From contig JAZRVD010000137.1 of assembly GCA_045598945.1 (NCBI GenBank), positions 1,513 through 65,512 of the forward strand: a stretch of 64,000 bases of DNA, read 5' to 3'. This DNA comes from Bacteroidales bacterium (lineage in GTDB: Bacteria; Bacteroidota; Bacteroidia; Bacteroidales; P3). A program made the translations under genes and the position numbers. The notes beneath the pieces are model-generated. The model was given only the letters and a program-made list of their open reading frames with translations. It was not told the origin of the DNA and did not search any database. Position 1 is the stretch's first letter. Every line of letters starts with the position of its first letter. Positions 8,897 to 37,556 of this stretch are shown piece by piece.

Positions 8897-8961
8897 AAAA
8901 TCAAATTAACATATTGAAATTTACACTATACAACACTTCGCACTCATTTATTGCGAGAGTG

Positions 8962-8969
8962 CAAATATA
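8962..8969 (-). promoter_or_regulatory. Bacteroidota -7 promoter box (TATATTTG on the coding strand) for the giant gene
   Basis: Matches the TAnnTTTG consensus about 65 nt upstream of the ATG at 8896. Confidence 0.45.
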
Positions 8970-9074
8970 CACTTTAGTTTTAATAAAAAAGCACCTACGC
9001 CATAAAAGCCAAACTAAAGTATTTCAATACATAAGATGATTTTTCCTACATCTATTGCAAATAAATACTATAGA

Positions 9075-9116
9075 CAAATAAAAAGACACACGACTTGCAG
9101 CAAAAATTGCTGCAAG
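9075..9116 (-). terminator. Rho-independent terminator downstream of era
   Basis: Hairpin CTTGCAGCA-aaaa-TTGCTGCAAG (9094-9116), followed on the minus strand by a T-rich tract (TCTTTTTATTTG). Confidence 0.5.
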
Positions 9117-19026: not shown

Positions 19027-19071
19027 TTGTGTGATACAAAATTGTGTGACACAAGGTTGTATGATACAAAA
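19027..19071 (+). repeat. Three tandem 15-bp units (TTGTGTGAYACAARR), each internally palindromic
   Basis: Units are TTGTGTGATACAAAA, TTGTGTGACACAAGG and TTGTATGATACAAAA. They are followed by (AT)5 and the -7 box. Confidence 0.85.
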
Positions 19072-19079
19072 TATATATA

Positions 19080-19087
19080 TATCTTTG
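19080..19087 (+). promoter_or_regulatory. -7 promoter box TATCTTTG for the ATPase gene
   Basis: Matches TAnnTTTG 18 nt upstream of the ATG at 19106. Confidence 0.6.
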
Positions 19088-19105
19088 CAAATAAAAAAAG
19101 ATATT

Positions 19106-20230
19106 ATGGATAGTCCCTTTCAATACGGCAAAGCAGTAGCCGACAAGCATTTTGTAGGAAGAAAGAAAGAGGTAGAACGACTTACGGCAAATCTCACCAA
19201 TGGGATAAACACCATACTCATCTCTCCTCGCAGATGGGGCAAGACATCGCTTGTAAAGAGATGCAAGGCATACATGACGTCGAGCAGATGTCAAGTCGTC
19301 TTTATGGACATCTACGCCTGTCGCAACGAATACGAATTCTACAACATGTTTGCCAAAGAACTGGTGCGCCAAACCTCGTCGCATATTGACGAGCTGTACA
19401 ACACACTGAAGGAGCTACTTGGACGCATTGTTCCCAAAATAGCAATAAAAGGCGATCCGACATGCGAATACAGCCTGTCGCTCGACATCACACCCAAGAA
19501 CTATAGTGCAGAAGAGATTCTGTCGCTACCGCAGCAGATAGCACAGCGCAAAGGGATTAACCTTATAGTGTGTATCGACGAGTTTCAACAGATAGGCGAC
19601 TATGAAAACAGTCTGACACTACAGAAAAAAATGAGGAGCATCTGGCAGCATCAGGAAGATGTAACATACTGTCTGTTTGGCAGCAAGCGGCATCTGCTGC
19701 AATCAATGTTTCAGAATAGCAACTATCCCTTCTACCGCTTTGGCGACATAATGTCGATAGGCTCTATAGACCTCAAGGACTGGGTGCCATACATACAACA
19801 AGGCTTTGCTATAAATGACAAGGAGATTGACGCAGAGATGGTTGCACAAATATGCGAGAGTGTGAAGCGCTGCCCTGCCTACATACAGCAGCTGGCATGG
19901 CTGACCCTTGTAGGCACAACCGACACAGCCACCGACGAGGTATTAACAGCAGCCATAGAGAACCTCATAGACGAGAACTCGGCACTATATATAGCCCAGA
20001 CAGAGACGCTGACGAGCTACCAGATGAATTTTCTGCGAGCCATTTGCGACGGCAAGACCACAAAACTTGGCGACACCGCCACGCGAGAAGAATACCACTT
20101 GGGGTCGTACTCAAACATAAGTCGCATAAAGACAGCCCTCGAAGAGCGCGAGCTGATAACCATAGAAGGCAAGCAGGTGGAGATTAGCGACCCCGTGTTG
20201 GAGCTATGGCTAAAGCGCATGATGATGTAG
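19106..20230 (+). CDS. AAA+/Arch_ATPase-type ATP-binding protein (DUF234-like architecture)
   Basis: FVGRKKEVERL...ILISPRRWGKTSL (Walker A), LIVCIDEFQQI (Walker B), and a C-terminal winged-helix-like tail. Start chosen at MDSPFQYGK, downstream of the promoter box. Confidence 0.7.
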   Translation: MDSPFQYGKAVADKHFVGRKKEVERLTANLTNGINTILISPRRWGKTSLVKRCKAYMTSSRCQVVFMDIYACRNEYEFYNMFAKELVRQTSSHIDELYNTLKELLGRIVPKIAIKGDPTCEYSLSLDITPKNYSAEEILSLPQQIAQRKGINLIVCIDEFQQIGDYENSLTLQKKMRSIWQHQEDVTYCLFGSKRHLLQSMFQNSNYPFYRFGDIMSIGSIDLKDWVPYIQQGFAINDKEIDAEMVAQICESVKRCPAYIQQLAWLTLVGTTDTATDEVLTAAIENLIDENSALYIAQTETLTSYQMNFLRAICDGKTTKLGDTATREEYHLGSYSNISRIKTALEERELITIEGKQVEISDPVLELWLKRMMM

Positions 20231-20234: not shown

Positions 20235-21431
20235 CTAACGACAAGCGTAGCAGATATACGGATATTTAATGCCATCGGCGGCACGCTTGAGAAAGATATT
20301 GACGCGCAGCACATCGCCCACACAGGGCGCCACAACGCCACACGAAACAAGAAAGCTATACGATATATAGCCCGAATTGTAGGCTGGCGAGGCGGTGCCT
20401 GCCTCCACGATACACTCAGCATCCAAGAGTCGCCAACCAAAAACAGCACCATTAGCATCATACGCCATAAGATGGATGGTATGAAAGCCAAAACGATGCA
20501 CACCCACCTGCGGCGGCAGCAGCTCGCTGATAACAGCAGACTTGAAGCCGCTATGCTTTGGCACAACAGGATAAAAGGTTACATACTGCCCTACCCTCGC
20601 CTGCCACAGTGCCGCATCGGCGACAAAATGACGCGAGAAGGCATCGAAGATATGTATATGAGCGTGATAGCTGTCTATACGGTCGACATATCCCGCCACA
20701 AGTGGAAACGTCGACGCCGCCGAAGCATGCGAAAGCTGTATGGCCTCGTAACGCAGAGCACCATTGCCAGAACCATATCCAACATCCGACTCGGTCACAC
20801 AACATTCCTCGCACAAAACAAGCGGGTTGTCGTCGTTCCACATCTCGTCGCCGTCGGCATACCAGCGTAGCACCTCGAAGAGCTTGCCTACAGGCTGCTG
20901 CACAGACAGCCGTTCGAGCAGGACAGACAGCTCCTCGCCATCAGGCGACACCAGCCGCACAACAGGCTGCTGCATGGCATAGACCTTGACAGCCATCATA
21001 GGCAAGATATAACGACGACATGCCTCGTCGCGCGTGGCAGGATGACGAAACTGATAGCGCACTCTGGCATGCACAGCACGCTGACGCAACGAAGGACAAG
21101 CTACGCCCTGCACAACCATGATGTCGCGATCGTCCTGCCTAAGATTGCGTTCCAAGCCCCATTGCTGTAGAAAGTCGACAAGGTTAAACTCATCATGCCC
21201 TTCGGCATAATCCAGCATAACCTCAAGCAACAAGGAGTACAACGCCGAAGGACGCGCGACGGGCAGAAGGAAGAACGAGCGCAACAAAAGCTGCACCTCG
21301 TCATTCGACACCTCGCCAAGATGCTGTCTCAGATACCAGCATATAGCCTCGGCAGCCTGCACAGGTCTGTCGTCGGCATGCTGCAACGCCTCGGCAAGCT
21401 GACTCCATTCTATATTTACATTATCTAACAA
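20235..21431 (-). CDS. Hypothetical protein (398 aa), last gene of the PqqD-like operon
   Basis: The ORF overlaps the upstream gene by 7 nt. No motif I can assign. Its stop lies 4 nt from the stop of the convergent ATPase gene. Confidence 0.65.
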   Translation of the reverse strand: MLDNVNIEWSQLAEALQHADDRPVQAAEAICWYLRQHLGEVSNDEVQLLLRSFFLLPVARPSALYSLLLEVMLDYAEGHDEFNLVDFLQQWGLERNLRQDDRDIMVVQGVACPSLRQRAVHARVRYQFRHPATRDEACRRYILPMMAVKVYAMQQPVVRLVSPDGEELSVLLERLSVQQPVGKLFEVLRWYADGDEMWNDDNPLVLCEECCVTESDVGYGSGNGALRYEAIQLSHASAASTFPLVAGYVDRIDSYHAHIHIFDAFSRHFVADAALWQARVGQYVTFYPVVPKHSGFKSAVISELLPPQVGVHRFGFHTIHLMAYDANGAVFGWRLLDAECIVEAGTASPAYNSGYISYSFLVSCGVVAPCVGDVLRVNIFLKRAADGIKYPYICYACR

Positions 21432-22585
21432 CGATGAAAGAGAGCTTTAACGGTGCCACGGAAACGCGAAGAGAAGTTCTCGACAAAAGCCGCCACAGCT
21501 GTGGACAGCGAGATGACAGCCGCAATGCGCGTAAGCCCCAAGAGGTCGACAAAGCCTTGCCACGCACGCCGCACACCTCGCTTAAGCTTGCGATGCTGAC
21601 GTGTGCCGGTGAGAAAATTTGAGCCCTCGACGATAGACCGCAGCACAAAGCCTTGCGAACGCGCCGCACGACGAGCGTTGTATAAAGGGAACTCATCCTT
21701 GGGCAAGCCTATCTGATTGACCACTATGCCACCCAACACCTGCCACGCTTTGAGAAGTCCGGTACGACGCAAGTCGTCATGCAACTGACGATAGTCGATA
21801 GCGCCATAGTGGTGATGCAATATCAACGCCCAGTCGCAAAACTGGCGGAGACCTATGCCACTATTGCTAAGATGCTGACATATATGATTGAAGACATACA
21901 GCACATTAAACTGCGGGTTGGGTTGCAGCACCTCTACAAAGCCTTGCTTTGGCACAAGAGAAGCTGTGCCATCGGTAGCGGAGATATACAGCGGCACGCA
22001 ATTCTCTGTTCTCAGCTGCCGTTCTGCCAGACGCCTGTAAGCACGCTTGCGGAACCTGTTGCCTGCCCATCCGGCACGCTTGTGCAACTCGACGTCAAGC
22101 CCGTTCCAATCAATATTGTATTCATAGTCGCCCACCTGATGAGCCTGCTTTACAGCCTCCATGTCGCCAGCCTCTTTGTTGAGCCTTACTATCAGCTCTA
22201 CACCTCTGTCAAACTCATTCTGCGGCAGATAGACATCGATGTCGCCACAAGCGCGCACACACCTGTTAGGATATAGCGCCGCCAAGCCGTCGCCTTTGAG
22301 CAGCACGGGGTGCAAGCCCTCGCCTCGCATAGCCTCAAACAGTTTGACAGTGCCTTCGGCAATATGCGAATGGGTGAACACCAGCTGAGCCATATACCGG
22401 CGTACATACACCAGGCACTTTGCCGACTGCTGGCTGTGGCTGTTGGTCAGCATCTGGCAGAAGTTGTCGGCCACCACGCCCAGCAAGGCATGACGATGGA
22501 ATATCTCCGCCAACGGCACAATATCCTCCTGGGTCTCCGGCCCCGAAGTCTGCCATAACGACGATCTAAGAATTTCTAAAAACAT
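21425..22585 (-). CDS. Uncharacterised nucleotidyltransferase family protein (NTP_transf_5-like)
   Basis: Pol-beta-fold signature ...VRACGDIDVYLPQ..., size and helical tail typical of the family. Overlaps the upstream gene by 20 nt. Confidence 0.6.
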   Translation of the reverse strand: MFLEILRSSLWQTSGPETQEDIVPLAEIFHRHALLGVVADNFCQMLTNSHSQQSAKCLVYVRRYMAQLVFTHSHIAEGTVKLFEAMRGEGLHPVLLKGDGLAALYPNRCVRACGDIDVYLPQNEFDRGVELIVRLNKEAGDMEAVKQAHQVGDYEYNIDWNGLDVELHKRAGWAGNRFRKRAYRRLAERQLRTENCVPLYISATDGTASLVPKQGFVEVLQPNPQFNVLYVFNHICQHLSNSGIGLRQFCDWALILHHHYGAIDYRQLHDDLRRTGLLKAWQVLGGIVVNQIGLPKDEFPLYNARRAARSQGFVLRSIVEGSNFLTGTRQHRKLKRGVRRAWQGFVDLLGLTRIAAVISLSTAVAAFVENFSSRFRGTVKALFHRC

Positions 22586-23015
22586 GATGCAAAAGATTAC
22601 ACACAGAATGTTTTATGGCACGCCACGGACGAGAGATGATGATATAATGCCAATATATACGGTAACCGATGTCCGTAGTCTCTACACGCTTGCCCTTGCG
22701 CACCACAGCCTGCAACACACCCACCACATAGCTATCCAACACATCGTTTTCGAGCACAGTCCTGTTGTCGCCGCAGCAGCAGTAACACACCTCTTTGCCA
22801 GGCACTATCTTGGGAGTCTTCACAATACGATGAAGCACATACTGCCCATTAGGACGCAGGTACAGCGGCACATCGCCTTTGTGCAGAGGGTGTTTGGGCT
22901 TGGCAACGACAATCACCAAGTCGCGCCCCTGACATATCAACGGCCTCATACTGTTGCCTACGGTGTTGTAGAATAGCACATCGTTCTTGGATAGATAGTC
23001 TCTAAAATTGATCAT
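22566..23015 (-). CDS. S24/S26 (LexA/signal-peptidase-like) serine peptidase
   Basis: Catalytic-serine motif VGNSMRPLI, beta-rich body, VLHRIV segment. Overlaps the upstream gene by 4 nt. Confidence 0.65.
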   Translation of the reverse strand: MINFRDYLSKNDVLFYNTVGNSMRPLICQGRDLVIVVAKPKHPLHKGDVPLYLRPNGQYVLHRIVKTPKIVPGKEVCYCCCGDNRTVLENDVLDSYVVGVLQAVVRKGKRVETTDIGYRIYWHYIIISRPWRAIKHSVCNLLHHVFRNS

Positions 23016-23743
23016 TGCATAACAGAATAAGCAAGTTGCGCTGCCTCAATATCGGGACGACAATATAGATGGAACACCGGCGCCGTGGTCAACAGCTTGT
23101 TGAGCAACACAAGCGTCTGCGACATACGCGATGGGTCGGTCGGGCGGAAAGTCTGTTGCAAGATGTGAGGGCAAGCCTCTACAGCAGATATTTTCTCTAT
23201 CTTGTTTTCATCACCTCGCGACAAGATGCACAGAGCCTTGACAGGCACGGCAATATTGCTGCTAAGATGGTGCTTGCCGTCCCACGGCGTGCCGTAAGCT
23301 ACAGACGGTGTGTCGACAGAGACTATGGGCTTGTCGTCGTTGACCATCACAGCCCTATCTCCCAGCATCTTGCGCCACAGCGCCGTATGGGTGCTTTTGC
23401 CTGTGCCGCTGCGGGCAAGGAAGAGATAGGCGCCGCCATCTACGGCAATAGTGCTGGCATGCATCAACAGCCGGCCATATTGCGGCAAGTGGTCGGCAAT
23501 AGACCTGTACACCGCCGTGGTCTCAAGCACGGCATCGGGGAAGTCGTAGGGAGGAAGCCCCTCCATCTCGCGCTCTCGCCGGCTGTGCCGACGCTCTTCG
23601 TCGATGTCGCAAGGCGAGATACTGACAGCGATGTCCGGCACGGCATCATCGTCGCAACGATAGTCTCTACACATGCCATGCACCACACTATACATCGACT
23701 CTACAGACACCGTAAGACCGGCGAGCCTATAGCAGGCTAACAT
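23012..23743 (-). CDS. HPr-kinase-related P-loop kinase-like protein
   Basis: HASTIAVDGGAYLFLARSGTGKSTH (P-loop encoded at 23390-23407) resembles the HprK C-terminal domain. Overlaps the PqqD-like gene by 7 nt. Confidence 0.6.
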   Translation of the reverse strand: MLACYRLAGLTVSVESMYSVVHGMCRDYRCDDDAVPDIAVSISPCDIDEERRHSRREREMEGLPPYDFPDAVLETTAVYRSIADHLPQYGRLLMHASTIAVDGGAYLFLARSGTGKSTHTALWRKMLGDRAVMVNDDKPIVSVDTPSVAYGTPWDGKHHLSSNIAVPVKALCILSRGDENKIEKISAVEACPHILQQTFRPTDPSRMSQTLVLLNKLLTTAPVFHLYCRPDIEAAQLAYSVMQ

Positions 23744-24003
23744 ACCACCACGCCCTCCTGCACAAGGCTGTCGATAATCCTATCTACCGACGACACCAAG
23801 GTGTCGCGATCAACGTCGTACTCATTGAGCATGGTCTCTATTATCTTGTCGTGATCGGCACCCTCGCCTATCAGTTGCATAATGCGATAACCGGTAGCGT
23901 TGAGTTGCACCATGCCGTTAAACTGGCGAGCGTCGTCGCCCACGGCGGTAGCCACATAGACATCGCCTACTGGCTGAAAAACAAATTTATATTTTAATTT
24001 CAT
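23737..24003 (-). CDS. PqqD-family (RiPP recognition element-like) protein, 88 aa
   Basis: MKLKYKFVFQPVGDVYVA...ATGYRIMQLI...DVDRDTLVSSVDRIIDSLVQEGVV fits the PqqD/RRE size and pattern. First ATG is at 24003; the track start at 24042 is rejected. Confidence 0.65.
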   Translation of the reverse strand: MKLKYKFVFQPVGDVYVATAVGDDARQFNGMVQLNATGYRIMQLIGEGADHDKIIETMLNEYDVDRDTLVSSVDRIIDSLVQEGVVVC

Positions 24004-24149
24004 AACAAAACGATAAACTATCTGTAAAGCGCTGCACGCCACAATGCCAATATACTATTCCAAGCCAGCGACTCAAACAAAAACATCAAAAGCCCCACAG
24101 TATTGTTTTTTCATCTTACATATAGCCGTCTAACCTATTATTGACATTG

Positions 24150-24157
24150 CAAAGATA
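24150..24157 (-). promoter_or_regulatory. -7 promoter box (TATCTTTG on the coding strand) for the PqqD-like operon
   Basis: Matches TAnnTTTG about 146 nt upstream of the ATG at 24003, immediately downstream of the rubrerythrin terminator. Confidence 0.5.
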
Positions 24158-24979: not shown

Positions 24980-27900
24980 TTACCCAACATCTTGATTTTC
25001 TGCCCACTGCTCGCATTGCTTAAGCACGATGTTCATAGCATCTTCGGCCTCTTCTGGCGGGTACTTGTACTGTTTCAGCAAACGCTTTACCAGTCGGCGC
25101 ATATTGGCACGCTCCGACTCTCTGCGGTTCCAGTCAATAGTACGATTTTTTCTTAGCATGTCGGACAAGTCTTTTGTGAGAGCAACCAACTGCTCGTTTG
25201 AATAGAAGTCCTTTACAGCCTGCGGCCGTGTCAAGGCATCGTAAAAAGCCTTCTCTTCTTTGGAGAGTCCCAAGACATTGCCCTGCTGTTCAGCATCCAT
25301 TATTTCCTGAGCCAGTTTCAGAAGCTCCTGTATAACCTCTTCGTTGGTCAGCAAGCCGTTTACATAACGGTTCAACGTCTCACTAAATATGTTGCTAAAC
25401 AGCTCACCGGTAACAATATTTGAACGTATCATAGTACGGACACGGCCACGGAGCAAGTCTTCGAGCAATTTTGCCGCAAGATTCTTTTCCTTCATCTTCC
25501 TGACCTCTTCCATAAATTTTTCATCAAAGAGGGAGAACTCTGTCTGTTCGTTAAAGAGATTGACCACACCATCGCTGCTCACGCTTTGCTCTATCAGGGC
25601 CGCTATACGCTGGTTTATCTCTTTTTTTGTTACCTTGCCAGGGCTCTGGAGTCGGACTATCAAGATGCGTACCGCCTCCATAAAACTGACCTCGAAACGC
25701 TCTTCTTCTACAAGCAGCGAACGGCACAACGTTACCGCCTGACGGAGCAGGGAGGCGTTCTTGACAAAGTCCTTGCAGTCGTCGGCCTTGTTTGGCGCAA
25801 CCATGAAATTGACGCCGCCCTTGATCAGTTGAGCACGTTCTGCCGGCGTCCCCTGCCAGAATTTGCTATAATCATAGCCATGAAAGAGGTCTCGACAGAT
25901 CTCAAGTTTCTCCTTGAACTCTGAATATGCCTTCTCCTTGATGTCGTTGTTACCATAGTTGTCGCGGTCGCGCTTTGTGTAACGTTTCATGGCGTCCTTC
26001 AAAGCAGCCGCGATGCCCACATAATCGACAATCAAGCCGCCAGCCTTCTCTGGGAATACACGATTGACGCGCGCTATTGCCTGCATTAGATTGTGGTCTT
26101 TCATTGGTTTATAGACATACATCGTAGCCAACGACGGGACATCAAACCCCGTAAGCCACATGTCCACCACTATGGCTATCTTCATCGCGTCGTTCTCATC
26201 TTTGAACTTCTTGGCAAGCTCTTTTCTGTATGCCTTGCCGCCAACAATGTCCGCCCATTCCTCCGGGTCCTGGTTGCCGCTGGTCATAACCACCTTTACC
26301 TTCTCGGCCCACTCCGGCCGCAGTTCGAGTATACGCTTGTATATCTTCATCGCTATTGGGCGAGAGTAAGCCACAATCATGGCTTTGCCGCAGCATATAT
26401 ACTGGCGGTTGTCCTCATAATGAGCTATGATGTCTTGTACAAGGTCGTTGACGGTGGCATCGTTGCCAAGAAGGGCGTCCATGTGCGACATCTCTTTCTT
26501 GTTCTTATCAAGGTCTGTCTCCGACGCGCCTTCTTCTCTCAGCTTGTCGTACTCGGCATCAATCTGTGCAAGGACATCATCGTTGAGTTTCAACTTTATA
26601 ACACGACTCTCATAATACACAGGCCGCGTTGCGCCGTCATTGACAGCCTGGGTCATATCATAGACATCAATATCGTCGCCGAAAACCTCTCTGGTGTCTC
26701 TATCCTTGTCTGATATTGGCGTACCGGTAAAACCAATATACGAGGCATGGGGCAGCGAGTTGCGTATCTTTCGTGCGGCACCGACATGCACATTGCCCTC
26801 GGTATCCACTTTCTCTTCCATGCCGTACTGTCCACGATGCGCCTCGTCGGTCATCACTATGATGTTCTGGCGGTCGGAGAGTGCGCCATCCCAGTCGTCG
26901 AACTTCTGCATGGTGGTGAAGATGATGCCGCCCGAATGACGATTTTTCAACAATGCCTTCAGTGAGGTGTCGTCCCCCTCTGCATTGCGACTTGTGCATT
27001 GCACGGCACGCTGACGGAGGAAGTCCACCGTGCGCGAAAACTGACCATACAGCTGCTCGTCGAGGTCGTTGCGGTCGGTTATAACCACAATAGTTGGATT
27101 TAAGGACTGCACCTTAGGATGGTGTGCCAGGAACACCATCGAGAGACTCTTGCCAGAGCCTTGCGTGTGCCAGAATACGCCAATCTTGCCATCGCCTTTC
27201 ACGGCCTCCGCTGTTCTTTGTGCTGCTTTCTCCACGGCGTAGTACTGATGATAGCCAGCCAATATCTTGGCATAACTGTCTTCGCGGACATCGAAAAGGA
27301 TATAGTTTTTCAGGAGGTTGAGCAATATCTGCGGGGCGAACACCAACTTGAAAGCTACGTCGTAGTCAGCCACCTCACCAGTAGGCTGCTTCCATTCCAT
27401 GTAGCGGTCTTCCTTGGCTGTTACCGTACCTATCTTGGTCAGGGCCATATCGCTCATGACGTTGAAGGCATTGTAGACGAAGAGCGAAGGTATGAACTTC
27501 TGGTAATTGCGGAGCTGCAGGTAAGCCTCGCTGGCATCCGTTTCTTCTCTCGACGGAGACTTCAGCTCAACGACTACCAAAGGCAGACCATTGACAAACA
27601 CCACAATATCGGGGCGCTTTGTGTCGAGATCTTGAACGGTGTACTGGTTTACCACGAGGAAGTCGTTGCGTTCTGGATGCTCGTAGTCTATCAGATTCAC
27701 CACCCTTGTCTTCTGCTCATACTGGCGCTCCACTCGCTCGTTCCCACGACCATAGAGCGCCATCGACTCCGACACCATGCTGCGACCGTCATCGTCAGCA
27801 CCTGTCGTCAGGGGCAGCTGCTGGCTGAACGTTACTTCCACGCCATACTGCATCATCTGGGTGAACTTGAAGTTGCACTCGTAGAGCGAAGAGCCTTCTA

Positions 27901-28108
27901 TCTGATGCAGCTTCTTGATGGCATCGTCAATGACTGAGATAGGCAACGTGGGATTGATGCGTTGCAAAGACTCTTGCAGCACATCTTCGAGGAGCGGATT
28001 GTTGTAGTCACGCTTTATGTCAGGTCCGTATTGGTAACGGAACTGCTTACCTTCAAGGTTTTGGAACAACTCTATGAGAGCCTGTTCGTATGTGTCTTCG
28101 GTAAACAT
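24980..28108 (-). CDS. hsdR: Type I restriction enzyme R subunit
   Basis: 1042 aa. Helicase motif I HTQGSGKSLSMVF and motif II MTDEAHRGQYG, an N-terminal nuclease-like region, and a C-terminal helical domain. Confidence 0.9.
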   Translation of the reverse strand: MFTEDTYEQALIELFQNLEGKQFRYQYGPDIKRDYNNPLLEDVLQESLQRINPTLPISVIDDAIKKLHQIEGSSLYECNFKFTQMMQYGVEVTFSQQLPLTTGADDDGRSMVSESMALYGRGNERVERQYEQKTRVVNLIDYEHPERNDFLVVNQYTVQDLDTKRPDIVVFVNGLPLVVVELKSPSREETDASEAYLQLRNYQKFIPSLFVYNAFNVMSDMALTKIGTVTAKEDRYMEWKQPTGEVADYDVAFKLVFAPQILLNLLKNYILFDVREDSYAKILAGYHQYYAVEKAAQRTAEAVKGDGKIGVFWHTQGSGKSLSMVFLAHHPKVQSLNPTIVVITDRNDLDEQLYGQFSRTVDFLRQRAVQCTSRNAEGDDTSLKALLKNRHSGGIIFTTMQKFDDWDGALSDRQNIIVMTDEAHRGQYGMEEKVDTEGNVHVGAARKIRNSLPHASYIGFTGTPISDKDRDTREVFGDDIDVYDMTQAVNDGATRPVYYESRVIKLKLNDDVLAQIDAEYDKLREEGASETDLDKNKKEMSHMDALLGNDATVNDLVQDIIAHYEDNRQYICCGKAMIVAYSRPIAMKIYKRILELRPEWAEKVKVVMTSGNQDPEEWADIVGGKAYRKELAKKFKDENDAMKIAIVVDMWLTGFDVPSLATMYVYKPMKDHNLMQAIARVNRVFPEKAGGLIVDYVGIAAALKDAMKRYTKRDRDNYGNNDIKEKAYSEFKEKLEICRDLFHGYDYSKFWQGTPAERAQLIKGGVNFMVAPNKADDCKDFVKNASLLRQAVTLCRSLLVEEERFEVSFMEAVRILIVRLQSPGKVTKKEINQRIAALIEQSVSSDGVVNLFNEQTEFSLFDEKFMEEVRKMKEKNLAAKLLEDLLRGRVRTMIRSNIVTGELFSNIFSETLNRYVNGLLTNEEVIQELLKLAQEIMDAEQQGNVLGLSKEEKAFYDALTRPQAVKDFYSNEQLVALTKDLSDMLRKNRTIDWNRRESERANMRRLVKRLLKQYKYPPEEAEDAMNIVLKQCEQWAENQDVG

Positions 28109-28119
28109 GGGTTTCTGTT

Positions 28120-28191
28120 TTTTTTATAGAATTTCTAGATATTCTAGAACTTCTAGACATTCTAGGGCTTCTAGAAATCATAGGGCTTCTA
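28120..28191 (-). repeat. Eight tandem 9-nt units (TAGAANNTC-like) beginning at the stop codon of the upstream gene
   Basis: Minus strand reads TAGAAGCCC TATGATTTC TAGAAGCCC TAGAATGTC TAGAAGTTC TAGAATATC TAGAAATTC TATAAAAAA. That gives six CTAG cores with exact 9-nt phasing. Confidence 0.9.
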
Positions 28192-29007
28192 TAGCTTTTC
28201 CTTAAGTTTTTTTATCTCATCCTGCTGGTCGTAGTAAGCTTTGAGGGCGCGTTGCTTTAGGCTTTCGTGGGCGGCTTGCCATTTAGCGGCTTCTGATTGC
28301 CATTTCTGCGCTTCGGTCTGCCATTTAGCGGCCTCTTGCAGAGCCTCTTGCAGCTGCTGTTGCAAGACAGGCAGCTGCTGCTCGAGTTGCTTGAGGCGCT
28401 CGTCATGCTGCTGGCGATAGCCGGTACGGGCGCGATACATTCTTTCCTTTATCCCGCCTTCAGTGATAAACTCATGCTCCAGTTTCTCCAAAAAAGACAT
28501 CATCATCTTGTCGGTCATGTGGCAGAGGGTGAGGCCGTAGTTGCAGAACTCCTCGTCCGTCCATTGCTGAAAGAAAGGCTCGTAGTCTGCGAGCTTGTTG
28601 TGTGTACGGCAATAGGCGAGCATGGCATCGTAGCGGGCTGTGTTACGGTCGAAATAACGCTGTGGGGCCATGTCGGTAGGATTGCCGAAGAACATCAGAT
28701 TGCGTGATTTGATATAGTCTTCAAAGTCTTCGCGGAGCTCTTGCAGCGAAGAGCGCGCCACGTTGAGAAGCTTCAGTTGCATTTCTGTTGATGTAACTCC
28801 ATCGGAGAGGCCTTCCACGATGTTCTGTTTGCATGAACGAGCAGCCTGTATCACCTGGTCGCGTGTGCGGTCTTTATAAAGATGTATAAAGCGGTCACAG
28901 AAAACGAATGCCAGCTGATATATCACATCCGATTTCTGGTAGAAGAACAGCTCCCGCCATTGCGTCTGTACCTTCAGCACCTTCTCTGCTTTCTTGTCAT
29001 TTTCCAT
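28189..29007 (-). CDS. Four-helix-bundle protein (23S rRNA IVS-protein family) with suffix domain and C-terminal coiled coil
   Basis: The N-terminal FYQKSDVIYQLAFVFCDRF...AARSCKQNIVEG...SSLQELREDFEDY pattern fits the family. The C-terminus carries three KWQ-xEA heptad-like repeats encoded by 3 x 21-bp tandem DNA. Confidence 0.7.
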   Translation of the reverse strand: MENDKKAEKVLKVQTQWRELFFYQKSDVIYQLAFVFCDRFIHLYKDRTRDQVIQAARSCKQNIVEGLSDGVTSTEMQLKLLNVARSSLQELREDFEDYIKSRNLMFFGNPTDMAPQRYFDRNTARYDAMLAYCRTHNKLADYEPFFQQWTDEEFCNYGLTLCHMTDKMMMSFLEKLEHEFITEGGIKERMYRARTGYRQQHDERLKQLEQQLPVLQQQLQEALQEAAKWQTEAQKWQSEAAKWQAAHESLKQRALKAYYDQQDEIKKLKEKL

Positions 29008-29013
29008 CTTGAC

Positions 29014-30174
29014 TTATAGTTTGATTTGACCAGACATGAGTTTGGGGAGGAGGGTGTCGCGGAGGGTGGAGAGACGGAAGGATTCGTTTTGTAATTTTGT
29101 CAGTAAATCCTGATTTGGGCAGATAGATTCAACAAATGAATCAATACTTTTTTTAGGAGGAATAACAACCTGATAATCTCGTAGATCCCCAATAAATATA
29201 CATTGTTGAACAGCTCCATGCCCTAAGTGGATAATCTTTCGTATTTGTGATTTGAGACAATGGAATAACCATAAACCATGCGTCTTGATACTATCTGCTT
29301 TGAGAATAGCGACACTTCGCTGAAATTCAAAATTGTTGGATTCCTCATTCAGATAACAAAGTTCTCCCAATGTTCCGACGGAAGTTAATAAAATATCAGA
29401 TTTTGAAAGTTTAGTTCTCTTTCTAAGAATGTCAAATGTGTATTTACTTATGTGTCTTTCATTATCTGATATATTGATTACTCCACTCTTTATATTCTTT
29501 GCACTCAAGAGTAAATAGGATGAATTATTATCATTCAGTACAGTATTGTGAACACCATCAGTTATTTGTATACATAGTTCTCCCAGTGTTCCCACTCTCC
29601 ACCCTTCAGGAATCATTCCGAGTTCTGACTCTACGAATTTACCATCTTTGAATGGAGCAAAGTCAATGAACCAATGCTTGAAGAGTGCCTGAGCCTGTGC
29701 CTCTAAGTTCTCACAGATACGACGATTTATGGCAATTTTGTCGTCGAGGGAGGAGAGGATGGAGGCTATGCGATTTTGAGTAGCCAATGAAGGCAAAGTT
29801 ATTGTTTGCTTTCCGATTAAGCCTACACCAATTCCTGGTTGTGCAGATTGCCCAGAGAGCCTTCCAAGCTTTAATGAGGCTAAAACACAAGAAAGATAAT
29901 ATGCATTGTGCTCATCAGTTGGAACAGCAACTACTGCATGTTCTGTCATATAAGCTTTTCCAGAAAAATAACGTACATTACCACAAGAAGCACCTTGTCT
30001 TCCAATTATGGCACATTCGCCGTCAAAATTATAATTGTCGGTAAATCCTCTTAAACCGTTACCTCCATATACAGGATATTTATCTGTCTCCTTAATATGG
30101 GAGGCGTTTATGGACTTACCACTACTCAATCTTGAACAGACATCACCAATAGTATATTCTTTCCACTCGCTCAT
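29014..30174 (-). CDS. hsdS: Type I restriction enzyme S (specificity) subunit
   Basis: Two target-recognition domains separated by the conserved helix LPSLATQNRIASILSSLDDKIAINRRICENLEAQAQALFKHWF, and a C-terminal LRDTLLPKLMSGQIKL. Confidence 0.9.
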   Translation of the reverse strand: MSEWKEYTIGDVCSRLSSGKSINASHIKETDKYPVYGGNGLRGFTDNYNFDGECAIIGRQGASCGNVRYFSGKAYMTEHAVVAVPTDEHNAYYLSCVLASLKLGRLSGQSAQPGIGVGLIGKQTITLPSLATQNRIASILSSLDDKIAINRRICENLEAQAQALFKHWFIDFAPFKDGKFVESELGMIPEGWRVGTLGELCIQITDGVHNTVLNDNNSSYLLLSAKNIKSGVINISDNERHISKYTFDILRKRTKLSKSDILLTSVGTLGELCYLNEESNNFEFQRSVAILKADSIKTHGLWLFHCLKSQIRKIIHLGHGAVQQCIFIGDLRDYQVVIPPKKSIDSFVESICPNQDLLTKLQNESFRLSTLRDTLLPKLMSGQIKL

Positions 30175-30758
30175 ACCCCCGTCTCCTTTCCATTAAGCAT
30201 TTCATACTCCTGTACCCACTCGGATAGTTTCTTCTGAAGGACATCCTTTTCGGGCAGACATAGGGCGTACTGCTGAGCATAGATGTTGGCCTCCTTGTGG
30301 GCTTCAATCTCATAGAAACTGCGTGCCTGTGGGTTCACTTCACGCATTAGAATCAGATAATGACTCCACGAGAGTTTGAACTCATGAATTTCGCAAACAG
30401 TGTTGACGATTTCCTTGTTTTCTGATTTCGTAAACAACGTTGACGGTTTCTGATAAACCGAAAAGAACTTACGGCAGTTGGTTAGAGTTTCCACAGACCA
30501 TCCGTCACCATATCGCTCGGTTAGCCTTGCTGACAGCCGCTTCAATACGCCTTTGCCATACTCTGCACGAGTATTGCCTCCTTGTTCATATTCCACTATA
30601 TACTGCCCCACACCATAGTAAGTATATACCATGGCGGTATTGATGGCCTTAGCCACCTGCTTGCGACCCTCTTCGATAAGTGAAGACACTCGTAAGAAGA
30701 GATCTTCTTCATTCAACGATACAATATTATTTTGAGTCGTCTTATTCTTCTGCTTCAT
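30171..30758 (-). CDS. DUF1016/YhcG-family paralogue with its nuclease core deleted (about 195 aa)
   Basis: The N-terminal domain is homologous to the next gene (RKQVAKAINTAMVYTYYGVGQYIVEYEQGG..RAEYG). LSWSHYLILM...SFYEIEA is then joined directly to a C-terminal-tail-like YALCLPEKDVLQKKL, so the PD-(D/E)xK region is missing. ATG at 30758. Confidence 0.6.
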   Translation of the reverse strand: MKQKNKTTQNNIVSLNEEDLFLRVSSLIEEGRKQVAKAINTAMVYTYYGVGQYIVEYEQGGNTRAEYGKGVLKRLSARLTERYGDGWSVETLTNCRKFFSVYQKPSTLFTKSENKEIVNTVCEIHEFKLSWSHYLILMREVNPQARSFYEIEAHKEANIYAQQYALCLPEKDVLQKKLSEWVQEYEMLNGKETGV

Positions 30759-30760
30759 AC

Positions 30761-31843
30761 TCACCCCTCCTTTTCGTTAAATCCAATCTCGGCGAGTTTC
30801 TCAGCACTTTCATTCTGTTGGAGACGGAAGATTTCCTTCTCGCGTTCTATCTCCTTGCGAAGTTCTTCCTTCGTAGGCATATAGAGCATATATTTTGACT
30901 GGAACAGATGGTCGTTGTCGCTGAGCTCTGAGTAGCGGGCGATGTCTGCATCGGTATCAGCACAGAGTATGATGCCGAAGGTTGGATTGTGCCCCTCAGG
31001 ACGATATTTCTCGTCGAACATCTTGCGATACATGTTCATCTGACCAACATCCTCAAACGAGATTTTGTCAATCTTCAAGTCGATGAGCACAAAGCAACGA
31101 AGAATGTAGTTGTAGAACACAAGGTCTACGTAGTAGTCGTTCTTCTCCGTAGAGATGTGCATCTGACGGTCGACAAGCGCATATCCTTTCCCCATTTCCA
31201 TAAGGAACTTTTCGATGTGCTTGATGATGGCGTCTTCAAGGTCTCGTTCAGAGAAGTCCCGTTTGGAACTGAGCCCAAGGAACTCTGCTACAACTGGACT
31301 TTTTATGAAATCTAACTTGTTGTCTTCCGTATTGGCAACAGCTTTGACATCAACCACTTCTGCACTCTTGTCTGCCTGATTGGCAAGCAGACGATGGTAA
31401 TACTGAGTGTTTATGTTTCGTTCCAACTCGCGTGTACTCCACAGTTGTGTTGCAGCTTCATTCATATACCATAGTCGCACCTTGTCGTCAGGCACTCGCA
31501 GCAGATGTCGAAAATGAGTCCACGTAAGATTTGGTACGCGCGAGTACCAAATCTGTATGTCGCTGAAATACAGATAGAACTGGCGATAGTGACGAAGGTT
31601 TCTTTCAGAGAAACTATCGCCATATTCCTTTAGTTCTGCAGCAATATACTTCAGCAACTTCGTGCCATATTCAGCTCTTGATTCGCCTTGCTGTTCTTCC
31701 TCCACAATTCTACAGCCTACATTCCAGTAGGTAGCAATCATTGAGGCATTGACAGCAGCATACGCCTGCTGCCTTCCTTTTTCGATAATATTGCGGATGT
31801 CGCCAACAAGAGCATTATTTTGACTCATTACGTTCTTTTCCAT
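30761..31843 (-). CDS. DUF1016/YhcG-family PD-(D/E)xK nuclease-like protein
   Basis: N-terminal domain GRQQAYAAVNASMIATYWNVGCRIVEEEQQGESRAEYG, a WTHFRHLL segment, and a C-terminal nuclease core (DLVFYNYILRCFVLIDLKIDK). ATG at 31843. Confidence 0.7.
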   Translation of the reverse strand: MEKNVMSQNNALVGDIRNIIEKGRQQAYAAVNASMIATYWNVGCRIVEEEQQGESRAEYGTKLLKYIAAELKEYGDSFSERNLRHYRQFYLYFSDIQIWYSRVPNLTWTHFRHLLRVPDDKVRLWYMNEAATQLWSTRELERNINTQYYHRLLANQADKSAEVVDVKAVANTEDNKLDFIKSPVVAEFLGLSSKRDFSERDLEDAIIKHIEKFLMEMGKGYALVDRQMHISTEKNDYYVDLVFYNYILRCFVLIDLKIDKISFEDVGQMNMYRKMFDEKYRPEGHNPTFGIILCADTDADIARYSELSDNDHLFQSKYMLYMPTKEELRKEIEREKEIFRLQQNESAEKLAEIGFNEKEG

Positions 31844-31845
31844 AC

Positions 31846-33940: not shown

Positions 33941-34327
33941 GAACAATCCTGTAACATCACACATTCAACATCATTACCTACACAACCTTCATACACAAAG
34001 CATCAGCAATTTACCAGACCATTTTTCATCCTTAAATTAAAGCAAGCACCATTTATGCAATGACATCAAATCAATATCCGTTAGAATTTTCCACACATAA
34101 ATGTCAAAAGAATTAATAAATTTATGTTCAACTATTTTTAACTATTCTTCCCATCATTATTATTTTTTGTGTTTTGCAGAACACACTGTCTCCGACTACT
34201 CTAACTAATAAAATCGCCCGTTTATACATACTGTTTTCCATTCTCGACATAAAGAAAACTTCATTTCACCTCCATCCTTGACATATTAAAATCAGTCTAT
34301 TTTTTTACATATTTACAGAATTTTTTT

Positions 34328-34343
34328 TTCGCATTTGTGCGAA
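34328..34343 (+). promoter_or_regulatory. Perfect palindrome TTCGCA-tttg-TGCGAA just upstream of the -7 box (candidate operator)
   Basis: 6-bp perfect inverted arms with a 4-nt spacer, 15 nt upstream of the promoter box of the HTH gene. Confidence 0.35.
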
Positions 34344-34357
34344 TGGAAAATTTTATA

Positions 34358-34365
34358 TATTTTTG
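34358..34365 (+). promoter_or_regulatory. -7 promoter box TATTTTTG
   Basis: Matches TAnnTTTG 24 nt upstream of the ATG at 34390. Confidence 0.55.
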
Positions 34366-34389
34366 CAAAAAATTTAACAATTTAACAAT

Positions 34390-35496: not shown

Positions 35497-35730
35497 CCAA
35501 ATATTAACATTATGAATGCATAATAGCTTATAGACAAAAAAAATCATGACATGAGAAGCAACACGAAAATTAGAGTATTTACTTCATTGATGGGAAGATC
35601 TTCTCACAATAATCTGGTAAGAAACCCGAATAAACCTGTGAAGATACATGTTTTTGCTAAATACAAGTATTTTATTTCGAAATTCCCTTTTTAACAATTA
35701 TTTTTCGCCTAAATTAAAAGAAACAAGCCG

Positions 35731-37271: not shown

Positions 37272-37500
37272 TATATTTCGACAGCAATTTATCTGTCATT
37301 TGTGTTGTCCTTTTATTGGTATAAAACCCCATCAAGTATTTTTTAGGAGTTGTCCCATTCCACTGAGTCCTTCTCTGCTTTATCAGTGATACAAAAAAAT
37401 CCCAATTAGACAAAACATCTGAAAACACAGATTAATTTCGTCAATGCACCAATACCCTACATCCCTGCCCCGCCATAGCATTTCAATCCATGCTAAGCGG

Positions 37501-37556
37501 CAACACCCATCAGTTCAACTCACCTTTTGGTAAGCACTTCTTACCATCTTCTCGGT
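37501..37556. repeat. Right copy of the 56-bp imperfect direct repeat (partner at 33885..33940)
   Basis: Covers the last 13 codons (TEKMVRSAYQKVS*) of the ClpX-like C-terminal ORF plus 14 nt beyond the stop. Confidence 0.9.

Follow-up and report, generated by a model that had tools for sequence, protein, structure and literature searches.

A putative ScmC-type peptide-maturation cassette coupled to a TOTE-like gene in a Bacteroidales operon

Which process is served by five overlapping genes that encode a PqqD-like protein, a kinase-like P-loop protein, a peptidase, a nucleotidyltransferase-like protein and a 398-aa protein, when no partner that would define a pathway lies close by? Such an operon occurs in a stretch of Bacteroidales DNA of 64,000 nucleotides, which was analysed at its full length and is referred to below as the window. 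An earlier note on this DNA had read the five genes as a RiPP-tailoring toolkit. We consider it probable that, taken as a whole, the locus is best explained by genes 1–4 forming a RiPP-type maturation cassette to which the fifth gene is unrelated; the toolkit reading thus survives for genes 1–4, a peptide-maturation set with no nearby precursor, exporter or class-defining enzyme, but not for the fifth gene.

Layout of the operon and its encoded proteins

The five genes occupy positions 20235–24042 of the minus strand and overlap consecutively by 7, 4, 20 and 7 nt, as calculated from the ORF coordinates (Table 1). Both the overlaps and the single upstream box reported earlier are confirmed, and the view of one coupled unit is supported. 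The consensus TAnnTTTG is matched 72 times in the window as opposed to 41.5 ± 6.2 times in shuffled sequences. Our motif scan found no minus-strand box upstream of any later operon gene; the only further match within the operon span (23982–23989) falls inside the PqqD coding sequence, and hence the 398-aa gene has no box of its own. The upstream box is a candidate promoter of the whole operon. The listed PqqD ORF (23737–24042) reaches a GTG at 24042, but translation probably begins at the ATG at 24003, since Bacteroidales homologues open with MKLKY[KD]F. Homologues of the 398-aa protein align from its first residues onwards, and no alternative in-frame start is present near its TTG. A convergent AAA-type ATPase gene stops at 20230, leaving the 4-nt gap that had been described.

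Table 1. Features of the operon, in positions of the window
Feature	Position	Strand	Basis or remark
-7 box, Bacteroidetes-type, TATCTTTG	24150..24157	-	consensus match only; ~147 nt upstream of the PqqD ATG
PqqD-family protein (RRE), 88 aa	23737..24003	-	Pfam PqqD
ScmC-family P-loop protein, 243 aa	23012..23743	-	PF27840, PEPCK/HprK-type fold
Signal-peptidase-fold peptidase, soluble, S26-like, Ser-His, 149 aa	22566..23015	-	profile matches, invariant residues
NTP_transf_5 nucleotidyltransferase-fold protein, 386 aa	21425..22585	-	PF14907
398-aa protein, TTG start	20235..21431	-	ORF list; homologue alignment

Profile searches uphold the assignments of the first and fourth proteins. The PqqD-like protein matches Pfam PqqD at 47.9 bits (cut-off 23.4); its best NCBIfam matches are lasso-type PqqD chaperones, all under cut-off, and its closest relatives belong to the Bacteroidales loci L010 (51%), L011 and L071 (42%). 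The fourth protein matches NTP_transf_5 (94.5 bits, cut-off 31.2) with conserved residues K97-G98, D115, D117, E166 and H168, and its closest cassette-linked relative is that of L011 (29–31% identity). The two remaining labels had to be revised. 'HprK-like kinase' is apt for the fold of the P-loop protein, whose AlphaFold model (pLDDT 92) retrieves PEPCK (E 6e-8) and HprK/P (E 1e-5) in Foldseek, but not for its sequence family: it scores 18.9 bits against HprK_rel_A (cut-off 200) and 20.8 bits against ScmC TIGR04249 (cut-off 125), its precomputed Pfam family is PF27840 ScmC, and every one of its 3,316 homologous clusters carries that same domain. HprK-related kinase A/B and PadeK-type kinases were rejected on the curated thresholds in favour of ScmC. 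The motifs SGTGKST, NDDKP and PWDGKH, invariant in the ScmC family, are all kept in the window copy.

The label 'S24 peptidase' does not hold. The third protein falls under the S24 cut-off (15.7 bits against 23.3) and matches archaeal/ER-type signal peptidase I (TIGR02228, 32.6 bits) and SipW (21.7 bits) better, both likewise below cut-off; in the PDB its family profile matches only signal peptidase I and SEC11A/C. Its invariant residues (G20, S22, M23, P25, H62, R63, G82 and D83) cluster in conserved boxes around Ser22, His62-Arg63 and G82-D-N, as in an S26-like Ser-His enzyme. A hydrophobic anchor was not detected (maximum KD19 = 1.19). The protein is a leader-peptidase candidate and, given the place of its gene in a peptide-maturation cassette, presumably cytoplasmic. 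The PqqD, peptidase and NTP_transf_5 proteins of the window are each nearest to Bacteroidales copies, and all four enzymes retain every family-invariant catalytic motif and look intact as far as their sequences tell.

The cassette in other genomes and its precursors

Genes 1–4 are probably the Bacteroidales version of a widespread and apparently undescribed peptide-maturation cassette of gut and rumen anaerobes; species-representative genomes contain no fewer than 566 such loci. The gene for the P-loop protein is its most conserved member. Among 82 loci, 64 have a PqqD gene and 62 the peptidase gene; an ABC gene occurs in 39, NTP_transf_5 in 33, a precursor within 8 kb in 30 and a radical SAM/SPASM maturase gene, immediately upstream where it occurs, in 13. 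Fuller cassettes, such as those at L003 and, within Bacteroidales, at L011, include an ABC exporter that lacks a peptidase domain and one to six precursor genes; the NTP_transf_5 enzyme is frequent in full cassettes but not constant. L011 combines the gene order of the window with an ABC gene and two convergent precursor genes, and it is at the position of these precursor genes that the window has its 398-aa gene. Other Bacteroidales relatives are truncated (L010 consists of PqqD and ScmC only, L071 has neither ABC nor NTP_transf_5), and at least a dozen Bacteroidales-type loci have no precursor; most Bacteroidales copies show the same gap as the window, where precursor, exporter and radical SAM genes are all missing. 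Elsewhere ScmC also stands alone, with just an ABC gene or with just a precursor, which implies that the cassette is loosely bound. Homologues of the NTP_transf_5 protein (24–32% identity) lie mostly outside cassettes; in 80 metagenome loci collected via the nucleotidyltransferase and screened only for genes of the cassette, its precursor and members of the 398-aa family, PqqD was found in eight and ScmC in seven.

The precursors are peptides of 30–45 aa with a lasso-like leader, M-K-x-Y-x-x-P-E-[ML]-E-[VI]-[IV]-x-F-x-x-E-D-[VI]-I-T-T-S, whose positions -6, -4 and -1 are always D, I and S, followed by short, hypervariable and acidic cores (median 11 aa, 28% D+E). Matches to the precursor HMM reach E 4e-19; the regular expression that seeded this model had been built from just two peptides, which makes it somewhat circular, and this is partly offset by an independent protein database search that returned 5,387 matching peptide clusters, none of them with a Pfam domain or a name. 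Six copies stand in tandem at L041. The presence of a radical SAM/SPASM gene goes with cysteine-containing cores (Fisher p = 4.6e-5). Some precursors have F, N or Q at position -3, which is unusual for signal peptidase I. Cleavage after the invariant Ser would place the Tyr-Pro-[LM] residues at -20/-17/-15, a three-residue shift from the -17/-14/-12 of lasso leaders.

From these components a pathway may be proposed, in which binding, cleavage site and export are all conjectural. The PqqD protein would bind the YxxP leader and the ScmC protein would use ATP to phosphorylate a peptide hydroxyl, candidates being the invariant Ser/Thr at the leader–core junction or a residue of the core. The NTP_transf_5 protein might decorate the phosphate or the peptide in the manner of PsmN, the peptidase would cleave after the small-residue T-x-S junction and the ABC protein would export the product. 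That a phosphate would first be added and then decorated is suggested only by analogy with phosphorylated lasso peptides. Pseudomycoidin is phosphorylated by PsmK, a kinase of the HprK family, and the hexose on its phosphate requires PsmN, an uncharacterised nucleotidyltransferase (PMC6993621); BsfK, also an HprK-family kinase, depends on its recognition protein BsfB1, and the leaders of lasso precursors contain YxxPxL together with a conserved residue at -2 (PMC10368454). The parallel that had been drawn between the PqqD/kinase-fold/nucleotidyltransferase trio and phosphorylated lasso clusters is thereby borne out.

A reduced copy and its fifth gene

Within the 64-kb window there is no precursor gene (best HMM E 2.3–6.3), no ABC exporter, no radical SAM gene and neither ScmE nor ScmF, and Pfam scans of most large ORFs found no lasso cyclase or B2 protease; on the absences that it named, the earlier note was right for the window. 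Because the cassette elsewhere has its own precursors, an ABC exporter and sometimes a radical SAM/SPASM maturase, the window copy is, to judge from gene content, a reduced version of it. With enzymes that look intact but none of these partner genes within 64 kb, it either works in trans, on peptides whose genes lie in another part of the genome, or is a remnant that makes no product. That this might be a degenerate fragment had been foreseen in the earlier note: fuller cassettes do exist elsewhere, a subset of them with radical SAM genes, but the enzymes look intact and no cyclase recurs in the genome loci that were clustered.

The 398-aa protein is an unrelated TOTE-like protein of helical and cold-shock/OB type, conflict-system-like and no member of the cassette. 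No Pfam family matches it, TPR, DUF7017 and S1CSD-TOTE included. The structure prediction that the earlier note had advised gave a model (pLDDT 86) with a helical N-terminal module and cold-shock/OB-like barrels in the C-terminal half, its best folds being Unr CSD456 (E 2.5e-3) and the OB domains of Mpa. The N-terminal module matches PADLOC PDC-M16B (E 1.8e-8), and residues 19–123 align with the TOTE-type module in hhalign at a probability of 98.7. A profile search retrieved 616 representatives, among them TPR/DUF7017/S1CSD-TOTE proteins of 800–900 aa. The family is solitary in all four other contexts examined (five loci: L001, L002, L088/L089 and L090), and its coupling to the cassette at the level of translation appears to be confined to this genome. 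This tight coupling counts against non-membership and could mean that the protein participates here.

Four other explanations compete with a maturation cassette plus unrelated fifth gene. It is unlikely, though worth serious attention, that the locus is a non-functional remnant of an L011-type cassette which lost its precursors and exporter, so that the remaining four genes make nothing. The missing precursor, ABC exporter and radical SAM gene, the differing degrees of truncation in L010 and L071 and the TOTE-like gene at the precursor position of L011 would all fit; yet the four ORFs are full length with all family-invariant catalytic residues, their tight overlaps suggest translational coupling, the operon's GC3 is the same as that of housekeeping genes, which speaks against a recent, decaying import, and the recurrence of precursor-less copies suggests retention over random decay. 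We regard as very unlikely a five-gene anti-phage module in a defence island, in which the TOTE-like OB protein would serve as the nucleic-acid sensor, with the kinase-fold protein, the nucleotidyltransferase and the peptidase as effectors. The coupled fifth gene without its own promoter box, its PDC-M16B and TOTE-type matches, and the surrounding genes for an AAA-type ATPase and a type I restriction-modification system with a YhcG nuclease invite this idea, but genes 1–4 have no PADLOC or PHROGs match, and their links elsewhere are with precursor and exporter genes and in no case with the 398-aa family, itself solitary in the other contexts examined.

The earlier note had leaned towards a lasso tailoring set (B1, kinase and nucleotidyltransferase) that has become separated from its cyclase and B2, a reading that now seems highly improbable. 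The lasso-type chaperones among the PqqD matches, the kinase-fold and NTP-transferase pair known from the paeninodin, pseudomycoidin and Bsf clusters and the YxxP motif of the associated leaders are set against a signal-peptidase-like protease, cores whose median of 11 aa is too short for a threaded lasso and lasso/HprK-related NCBIfam scores that are all far below cut-off; moreover, neither an Asn-synthetase-like cyclase nor a transglutaminase-like B2 recurs on gene clustering of 80 genome loci retrieved via the P-loop protein. Least probable of all is a system that processes or secretes large surface proteins rather than small peptides, with a SipW-like role for the peptidase. Several Firmicute copies do adjoin giant LRR_5/Flg_new/SpaA surface-protein genes, and at L029 the leader is fused onto a 124-aa protein, but the peptidase has no membrane anchor, leader-bearing genes encode overwhelmingly peptides of 30–45 aa, PqqD proteins are peptide-recognition elements and no such surface-protein gene is adjacent to the window operon.

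Relation to known systems

The maturation cassette resembles several described systems. The SynChlorMet (SCM) cassette, which we take to be the one defined by NCBIfam TIGR04249–TIGR04252 with ScmC and the radical SAM/SPASM proteins ScmE and ScmF, likewise pairs a ScmC-like P-loop protein with a PqqD-family protein, and a radical SAM/SPASM peptide maturase is shared by the 13 related loci noted above. The P-loop protein of the window remains far from the SCM equivalog cut-off and has no ScmE or ScmF beside it in the window, and we know of no signal-peptidase-like gene, NTP_transf_5 gene or EDVITTS-type precursor in the SCM definition. In the HPr-rel-A system, flagged only bioinformatically, an HprK-fold kinase (TIGR04352, kinase A) also adjoins a PqqD-family chaperone (TIGR04353), but the window proteins score 18.9 against 200 and 19.2 against 35, so far below the cut-offs that theirs is a different family.

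With ER/archaeal-type signal peptidase I (SipW, Sec11; MEROPS S26B) the peptidase shares three conserved boxes, namely SM-P, which contains the catalytic Ser, H-R and G-D-N; it differs in having only 149 aa, no membrane anchor and scores that are all below the curated cut-offs. For the fifth gene only, the comparison is with the TPR-OB (TPR-cold-shock-domain) proteins, which belong to TOTE conflict systems according to the passage in PMC12458937 that cites Aravind et al. (2022). Homology over residues 19–123, the modelled barrels and the PDC-M16B match are the points of likeness; the 398-aa protein is half their size, no TBP or effector genes adjoin it and, unlike theirs, its gene is coupled to a peptide-maturation operon.

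From the lasso clusters pade (paeninodin), psm (pseudomycoidin) and bsf (Bradymonas) the cassette differs in that neither a lasso cyclase nor a B2 cysteine protease recurs in the clustered loci, in its soluble signal-peptidase-fold Ser-His protease, in a kinase-fold protein of the ScmC family PF27840 far under the HprK-related cut-offs, in acidic cores that, unlike paeninodin and pseudomycoidin, seldom end in Ser and, for the window copy, in having no precursor and exporter. It has in common with them a discrete PqqD-type recognition protein, a kinase-type protein with the HprK/PEPCK P-loop fold, an uncharacterised nucleotidyltransferase-fold protein (PsmN and BsfN in those clusters), an ABC exporter in its full versions and leaders with Y-x-x-P-x-[LM] and a conserved small or hydroxyl residue beside the cleavage site.

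The operon and its enzymes

To judge from its sequence, the five-gene operon is a single coupled unit, because neighbouring ORFs overlap by 7, 4, 20 and 7 nt and a motif scan found no minus-strand copy of the Bacteroidetes -7 box consensus preceding any of the later operon genes. The ORF coordinates confirm the overlaps reported in the earlier note and the 4 nt separating the stop codon of gene 5 from that of a convergent gene for an AAA-type ATPase, and its single promoter box for the whole unit likewise holds up. The consensus itself occurs 72 times in the window, against 41.5 +/- 6.2 expected, and this enriched motif lies upstream of several genes. In a Bacteroidetes genome, sigma-70 and terminator scans tell little; past the end of gene 5 they give two weak terminator-like sites, both of which reside inside the convergent ATPase gene. 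For gene 1 the ATG at 24003 is the most likely start codon, yielding a protein of 88 aa, because its Bacteroidales homologues begin with MKLKY[KD]F. Gene 5 starts with a TTG codon at 21431, near which there is no other in-frame start codon, and its N-terminus aligns with the homologues from the first residues. A recent horizontal transfer of the cassette was considered and rejected, since its GC3 (0.58-0.64) matches that of the housekeeping genes.

Gene 1 encodes a PqqD-like protein (Pfam PqqD, 47.9 bits against a cut-off of 23.4) whose best NCBIfam matches, none of which reaches its cut-off, are PqqD chaperones of lasso and other RiPP systems, including the lasso B1-type models NF033530 (33.3 of 70 bits) and NF033536 (24.8 of 80). 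The sequence matches of the P-loop protein encoded by gene 2 are weak and comprise PEPCK_ATP, the ScmC model TIGR04249 (20.8 of 125 bits) and the HprK-related kinases A (TIGR04352, 18.9 of 200) and B (TIGR04355, 13.8 of 200), the scores lying below the curated cut-offs. It has 3,316 homologous protein clusters, every one of which carries PF27840, a newer Pfam family named ScmC; the SGTGKST, NDDKP and PWDGKH motifs are invariant in this family and all three are kept in gene 2. At the sequence level the family profile matches PEPCK weakly, and HprK/P becomes visible through fold search alone: the confident structural model of gene 2 (pLDDT 92) resembles ATP-dependent PEPCK (E 6e-8) and, with E 1e-5, HPr kinase/phosphorylase, the latter a fold-level likeness with a TM of about 0.5 on the target. 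The earlier assignment as an HprK-like kinase is thus sound as regards the fold and fails as regards the family, whereas the accompanying nucleotidyltransferase call is borne out by profile search. Gene 4 matches NTP_transf_5 with 94.5 bits and conserves the K-G and D-x-D residues (D115, D117), and a search of the PDB with the family profile returned nothing meaningful.

Gene 3 had been read as an S24 peptidase, a label that has to be withdrawn. Its Peptidase_S24 score of 15.7 bits is below the gathering score of 23.3, and the second catalytic residue is a histidine and not the lysine of the LexA-like Ser-Lys dyad. Archaeal/ER-type signal peptidase I and SipW are better matches for the protein than S24, yet these too fall below the cut-offs; its family profile retrieves only signal peptidase I and SEC11A/C from the PDB, and the invariant residues (the serine of an S-M-x-P box, an H-R box and G-D-N) follow the SipW/Sec11 Ser-His pattern. 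There is no hydrophobic anchor, and the protein is therefore probably a soluble enzyme. None of genes 1-4 has a match in PADLOC or PHROGs, and the window enzymes keep every family-invariant residue.

Features of the window and of related loci (L-numbers) from other genomes or metagenomes
Feature	Sequence	Position	Strand	Remarks
Five-ORF operon	window	20235-24042	minus	ORFs of 101 (more likely 88), 243, 149, 386 and 398 aa
Bacteroidetes -7 box TATCTTTG	window	24150-24157	minus	consensus TAnnTTTG
Convergent 399-aa ATPase gene	window	19031-20230	plus	AAA-ATPase_like/ATPase_2, borderline in Pfam; faint PADLOC PDC-S01; adjoins TOTE-like gene
Type I RM system	window	24980-33429
HsdR	window	24980-28108
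HsdS	window	29014-30174		GC3 0.31
Two DUF1016/YhcG PDDEXK-nuclease genes	window	30171-31849		between hsdS and hsdM
HsdM	window	31846-33429
Low-GC stretch	window	34000-39800		GC 0.32-0.37
tRNA-Leu	window	39812-39894
tRNA-Leu	window	39948-40034
2,895-aa ORF	window	209-8896	minus	GC 0.41
1,536-aa ORF	window	40313-44923	minus	GC3 0.74
1,017-aa ORF	window	41405-44458	plus	antisense to 1,536-aa ORF
Precursor gene	L003	7810-7908
Precursor gene	L007	7092-7199
Six tandem precursor genes	L041	2215-3223
Two precursor genes	L011	9013-9260	minus
Radical SAM/SPASM maturase gene	L035	6637-7998		directly upstream of ScmC
Radical SAM/SPASM maturase gene	L018, L020, L025, L027, L030, L034, L054, L055, L065, L082, L084			directly upstream of ScmC
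LRR_5/Flg_new/SpaA surface-protein genes	L003	1-7773
LRR_5/Flg_new/SpaA surface-protein genes	L005	198-3752, 7194-12737
LRR_5/Flg_new/SpaA surface-protein genes	L007	1-7065
Cassette of the second Bacteroidales-type order	L102	about 6200-9100

The cassette and its precursor peptides across genomes

A scan with the ScmC alignment, covering one genome per species, returned at least 566 loci, of which 80 were fetched; they derive mostly from rumen and gut Firmicutes (Ruminococcus, Lachnospiraceae, Oscillospiraceae) with some Atopobiaceae and Bacteroidales. Together with five contigs found via individual proteins they make up 82 non-redundant loci, 37 of which have enough flanking sequence. The recurrent architecture is ScmC-PqqD-peptidase-ABC exporter-NTP_transf_5. 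PqqD is present in 64/82 loci (30/37 with enough flank), the peptidase in 62/82 (29/37), the ABC exporter in 39/82 (22/37), NTP_transf_5 in 33/82 (17/37) and a precursor in 30/82 (13/37). When all neighbouring ORFs were clustered, only one other family came up in over five loci: a peptide maturase of the radical SAM/SPASM type, 450 aa long, encoded just upstream of ScmC and related to the geopeptide, Clo7bot, PapB and CefB types. The cassette is not invariably the neighbour of a cyclase or radical SAM gene, a constant association that the earlier note had entertained: radical SAM genes occur in 13/82 loci (7/37 with enough flank), and the clustering revealed no Asn-synthetase-like or transglutaminase-like family recurring in the 80 related genome loci.

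ScmC is also found alone, with an ABC gene only or with a precursor only. A metagenome scan with the alignment of the window and L011 NTP_transf_5 proteins (L011 being a locus of a Paludibacteraceae MAG) retrieved homologues mostly outside such cassettes and no closer relatives of the window operon. A second Bacteroidales-type order, ScmC (about 300 aa)-peptidase-PqqD-NTP_transf_5(-ABC), is seen in L097, L098, L100, L102 and L092, which lie among sulfatase and outer-membrane protein genes and harbour no recognisable precursor. Several Firmicute cassettes adjoin giant genes for LRR_5/Flg_new/SpaA surface proteins, an adjacency that may be meaningful or may simply denote variable genome regions.

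L003 and L007 each have small ORFs beside the cassette that show clear mutual homology, and a regular expression followed by an HMM (best E 4e-19) extended these putative precursors to 30 of the 82 loci. Their leader follows the consensus M-K-x-Y-x-x-P-E-[ML]-E-[VI]-[IV]-x-F-x-x-E-D-[VI]-I-T-T-S, in which Asp, Ile and Ser never vary and Tyr and Phe hardly ever do. The residues past the invariant Ser are hypervariable and short (median 11 aa), rich in Asp and Glu (28%) and Gly (13%) and almost devoid of basic residues. Cysteine-containing cores accompany the radical SAM/SPASM gene in 8/10 cases compared to 2/27 elsewhere (Fisher p = 4.6e-5). A leader common to all members, joined to cores that diverge, typifies RiPP precursors, and we classify these predicted peptides as a family of that kind. 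A profile search of 5.8 billion proteins recovered 5,387 clusters of such precursor peptides, all of them unnamed and free of Pfam domains, and no NCBIfam model matches the peptides. Upstream of cassettes with no known precursor the only other conserved small ORFs are three two-member clusters, which look like chance, and L097 and L098 have no conserved small ORF in common.

The window copy and its fifth gene

By sequence, the PqqD, peptidase and NTP_transf_5 proteins of the window have their nearest relatives in the Bacteroidales copies L010, L011, L071 and L080. The window cassette retains the ScmC motifs, an adjacent PqqD gene, a peptidase of ~150 aa (Ser, His-Arg, GDN) and NTP_transf_5. 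L011 has the window gene order, PqqD-ScmC-peptidase-NTP_transf_5, and in addition an ABC exporter gene upstream, and its NTP_transf_5 is directly followed by two convergent precursor genes; in the window, the position of the exporter is instead taken by a rubrerythrin gene and that of the precursors by the 398-aa gene. Scanning all six frames of the 64 kb with HMMs and strict regular expressions identified no precursor (best E 6.3 with the general and 2.3 with the Bacteroidales-tuned leader HMM). Neither a labelled homologue of the ABC exporter nor, in Pfam scans of the neighbouring genes, any such domain was found, the window has no radical SAM gene, and no Asn-synthetase-like cyclase or transglutaminase-like B2 protein was detected among the subset of window ORFs that were Pfam-scanned, the sole protease of the cassette being the signal-peptidase-like enzyme. 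The gaps listed in the earlier note (cyclase, B2 protease, radical SAM enzyme, exporter and precursor) are accordingly upheld, for cyclase and B2 within the scanned ORFs.

An operon thus depleted could be a non-producing remnant, or it could act in trans on unlinked peptides. Precursor-less copies of the Bacteroidales type recur (L010, L071, L080, L045, L060), some of them shortened: L010 consists of PqqD and ScmC only, L071 lacks ABC and NTP_transf_5, and L080, L045 and L060 lack NTP_transf_5. Seven more cassette loci of the metagenome scan (L092, L097, L098, L100, L102, L142, L169) have no local precursor either. This recurrence of orphan copies, the intact motifs and the tight coupling speak against a remnant, and because of them we modestly favour action in trans.

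The fifth gene has to be viewed separately from the other four. Searches of Pfam, NCBIfam and PHROGs returned no match and in particular no Pfam TPR or S1CSD-TOTE domain, so that the earlier remark that the protein had no placeable motif is correct with respect to Pfam; it does not extend to profile and fold comparisons, which reveal a TOTE-type N-terminal module and, weakly, an OB-like fold. An exhaustive profile search uncovered 616 representatives, compared to 11 relatives by word-indexed search; about 70 of them are full-length (370-450 aa), and many are proteins of 800-900 aa that share the N-terminal module and carry TPR, DUF7017 and S1CSD-TOTE-1/2 domains. This domain set is the one of the TPR-OB component of TOTE (TPR, OB, TBP, effector) conflict systems, as cited in PMC12458937. 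Residues 19-123 of gene 5 align with a long TPR-OB-type protein (hhalign probability 98.7), and the same region is matched by the PADLOC candidate PDC-M16B (E 1.8e-8). The structural model (pLDDT 86) has a helical N-terminal part followed by beta-barrels, the best, though weak, fold matches of which are cold-shock/OB domains (Unr CSD456, Mpa). No TBP-like or effector gene adjoins gene 5, its neighbours being the NTP_transf_5 gene and the convergent AAA-type ATPase gene. The earlier note had counted the protein among the RiPP tailoring genes, a place it loses here: because its homologues are solitary among unrelated neighbours in the four other genomic contexts examined, and none occurs in 160 cassette or NTP_transf_5 loci, gene 5 is a passenger, unrelated and conflict-system-like, that in this genome became joined to the end of the operon. 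The window copy is consequently a reduced, precursor-less cassette with such a gene attached.

The surroundings of gene 5 include the AAA-type ATPase gene and a type I restriction-modification system with YhcG nuclease genes inserted, its hsdS being low in GC. Further along, a low-GC stretch encoding an HTH protein with an M78 (IrrE-like) peptidase, a DUF4417 protein and an AAA_2 ATPase ends at two tRNA-Leu genes and looks like an integrated island. Elsewhere, the only Pfam match of a low-GC 2,895-aa ORF is a CHU_C type IX secretion signal at its C-terminus, which confirms that the DNA is of Bacteroidota origin and agrees with the names of matching protein clusters, by which the organism falls within Bacteroidales (Prevotella- or Bacteroidaceae-like MAGs). 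A 1,536-aa candidate ORF with no Pfam match at E <= 1e-5 lies antisense to a 1,017-aa candidate ORF, either strand of which may be the coding strand.

A putative maturation route and its relation to known systems

The protein families, their intact motifs, the linkage elsewhere to precursor, exporter and radical SAM genes and the absence of these here were all obtained by computation, and the chemistry proposed below is drawn by analogy with lasso-peptide systems. PqqD would bind the leader, ScmC would phosphorylate a hydroxyl and the NTP_transf_5 protein would decorate it; the soluble enzyme with the signal-peptidase fold would then cut after the T-x-S junction, and export of the product would fall to the ABC protein, a transporter devoid of a peptidase domain. 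At the junction Ser is invariant at -1 and position -3 is mostly small; the weak points of the scheme are that -3 is sometimes F, N or Q, that the cores seldom end in Ser and that ScmC can stand apart from the cassette. It is possible, though on the whole doubtful, that the complete picture is one of a new RiPP class in gut and rumen anaerobes, in which short linear acidic peptides undergo phosphorylation followed by glycosylation or nucleotidylation and are set free by a soluble leader protease of the signal-peptidase fold, with the Bacteroidales set kept for action in trans and co-expressed here with a TOTE-like protein that binds nucleic acid.

We regard the locus as an RRE-dependent peptide maturation cassette, in the window in reduced form, and its family gives the impression of a highly abundant peptide system of gut anaerobes that has so far gone unexplored. 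The four-gene set reaches far beyond one genome, the cassette occurring across hundreds of species of the gut and rumen along with thousands of unannotated precursors. To our knowledge, the signal-peptidase fold has no precedent among RiPP leader peptidases, and we know of a biochemical counterpart to the pairing of a kinase fold with a nucleotidyltransferase only in a few lasso peptides; the cassette joins a lasso-like recognition logic to a protease of the signal-peptidase fold. Once defined, the product would give dominant gut anaerobes a further peptide class, tell what Pfam ScmC and part of NTP_transf_5 do, and explain why many Bacteroidales retain the enzymes with no linked substrate. 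The window locus, having neither precursor nor exporter, is less directly informative, and its main worth is that it points to the family and offers a case on which action in trans can be tested. The open-access literature, including a 2023 Bacteroidales RiPP survey and surveys of rumen and anaerobe RiPPs, contains no description of the cassette, leader or product, in agreement with the earlier statement that such cassettes have no experimentally defined product.

The closest bioinformatically named systems are SynChlorMet and HPr-rel-A, for which the window proteins score far below the curated thresholds; compared to SynChlorMet, the ScmC equivalog reaches 20.8 of 125 bits and the window has no ScmE/ScmF radical SAM/SPASM genes. 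The closest characterised systems are the clusters for phosphorylated and glycosylated lasso peptides. Their B1 recognition proteins bind the YxxPxL motif of the leader, and the B1 protein of the Bradymonas (Bsf) clusters also assists an HprK-family kinase (PMC10368454); in the pseudomycoidin system the kinase PsmK phosphorylates the peptide, and addition of hexose to the phosphate requires PsmN, an uncharacterised NTP transferase (PMC6993621). The lasso parallel drawn in the earlier note stands in so far as the kinase and nucleotidyltransferase pair resembles PsmK/PsmN, and gives way in that no cyclase or B2 protein recurs in the 80 loci. The cassette leader motif Y-x-x-P-x-[LM] resembles YxxPxL, although the register of the Tyr and Pro is off by three residues if cleavage follows the Ser, and compared to the lasso clusters the cassette is devoid of their two defining enzymes and employs a protease of a different fold.
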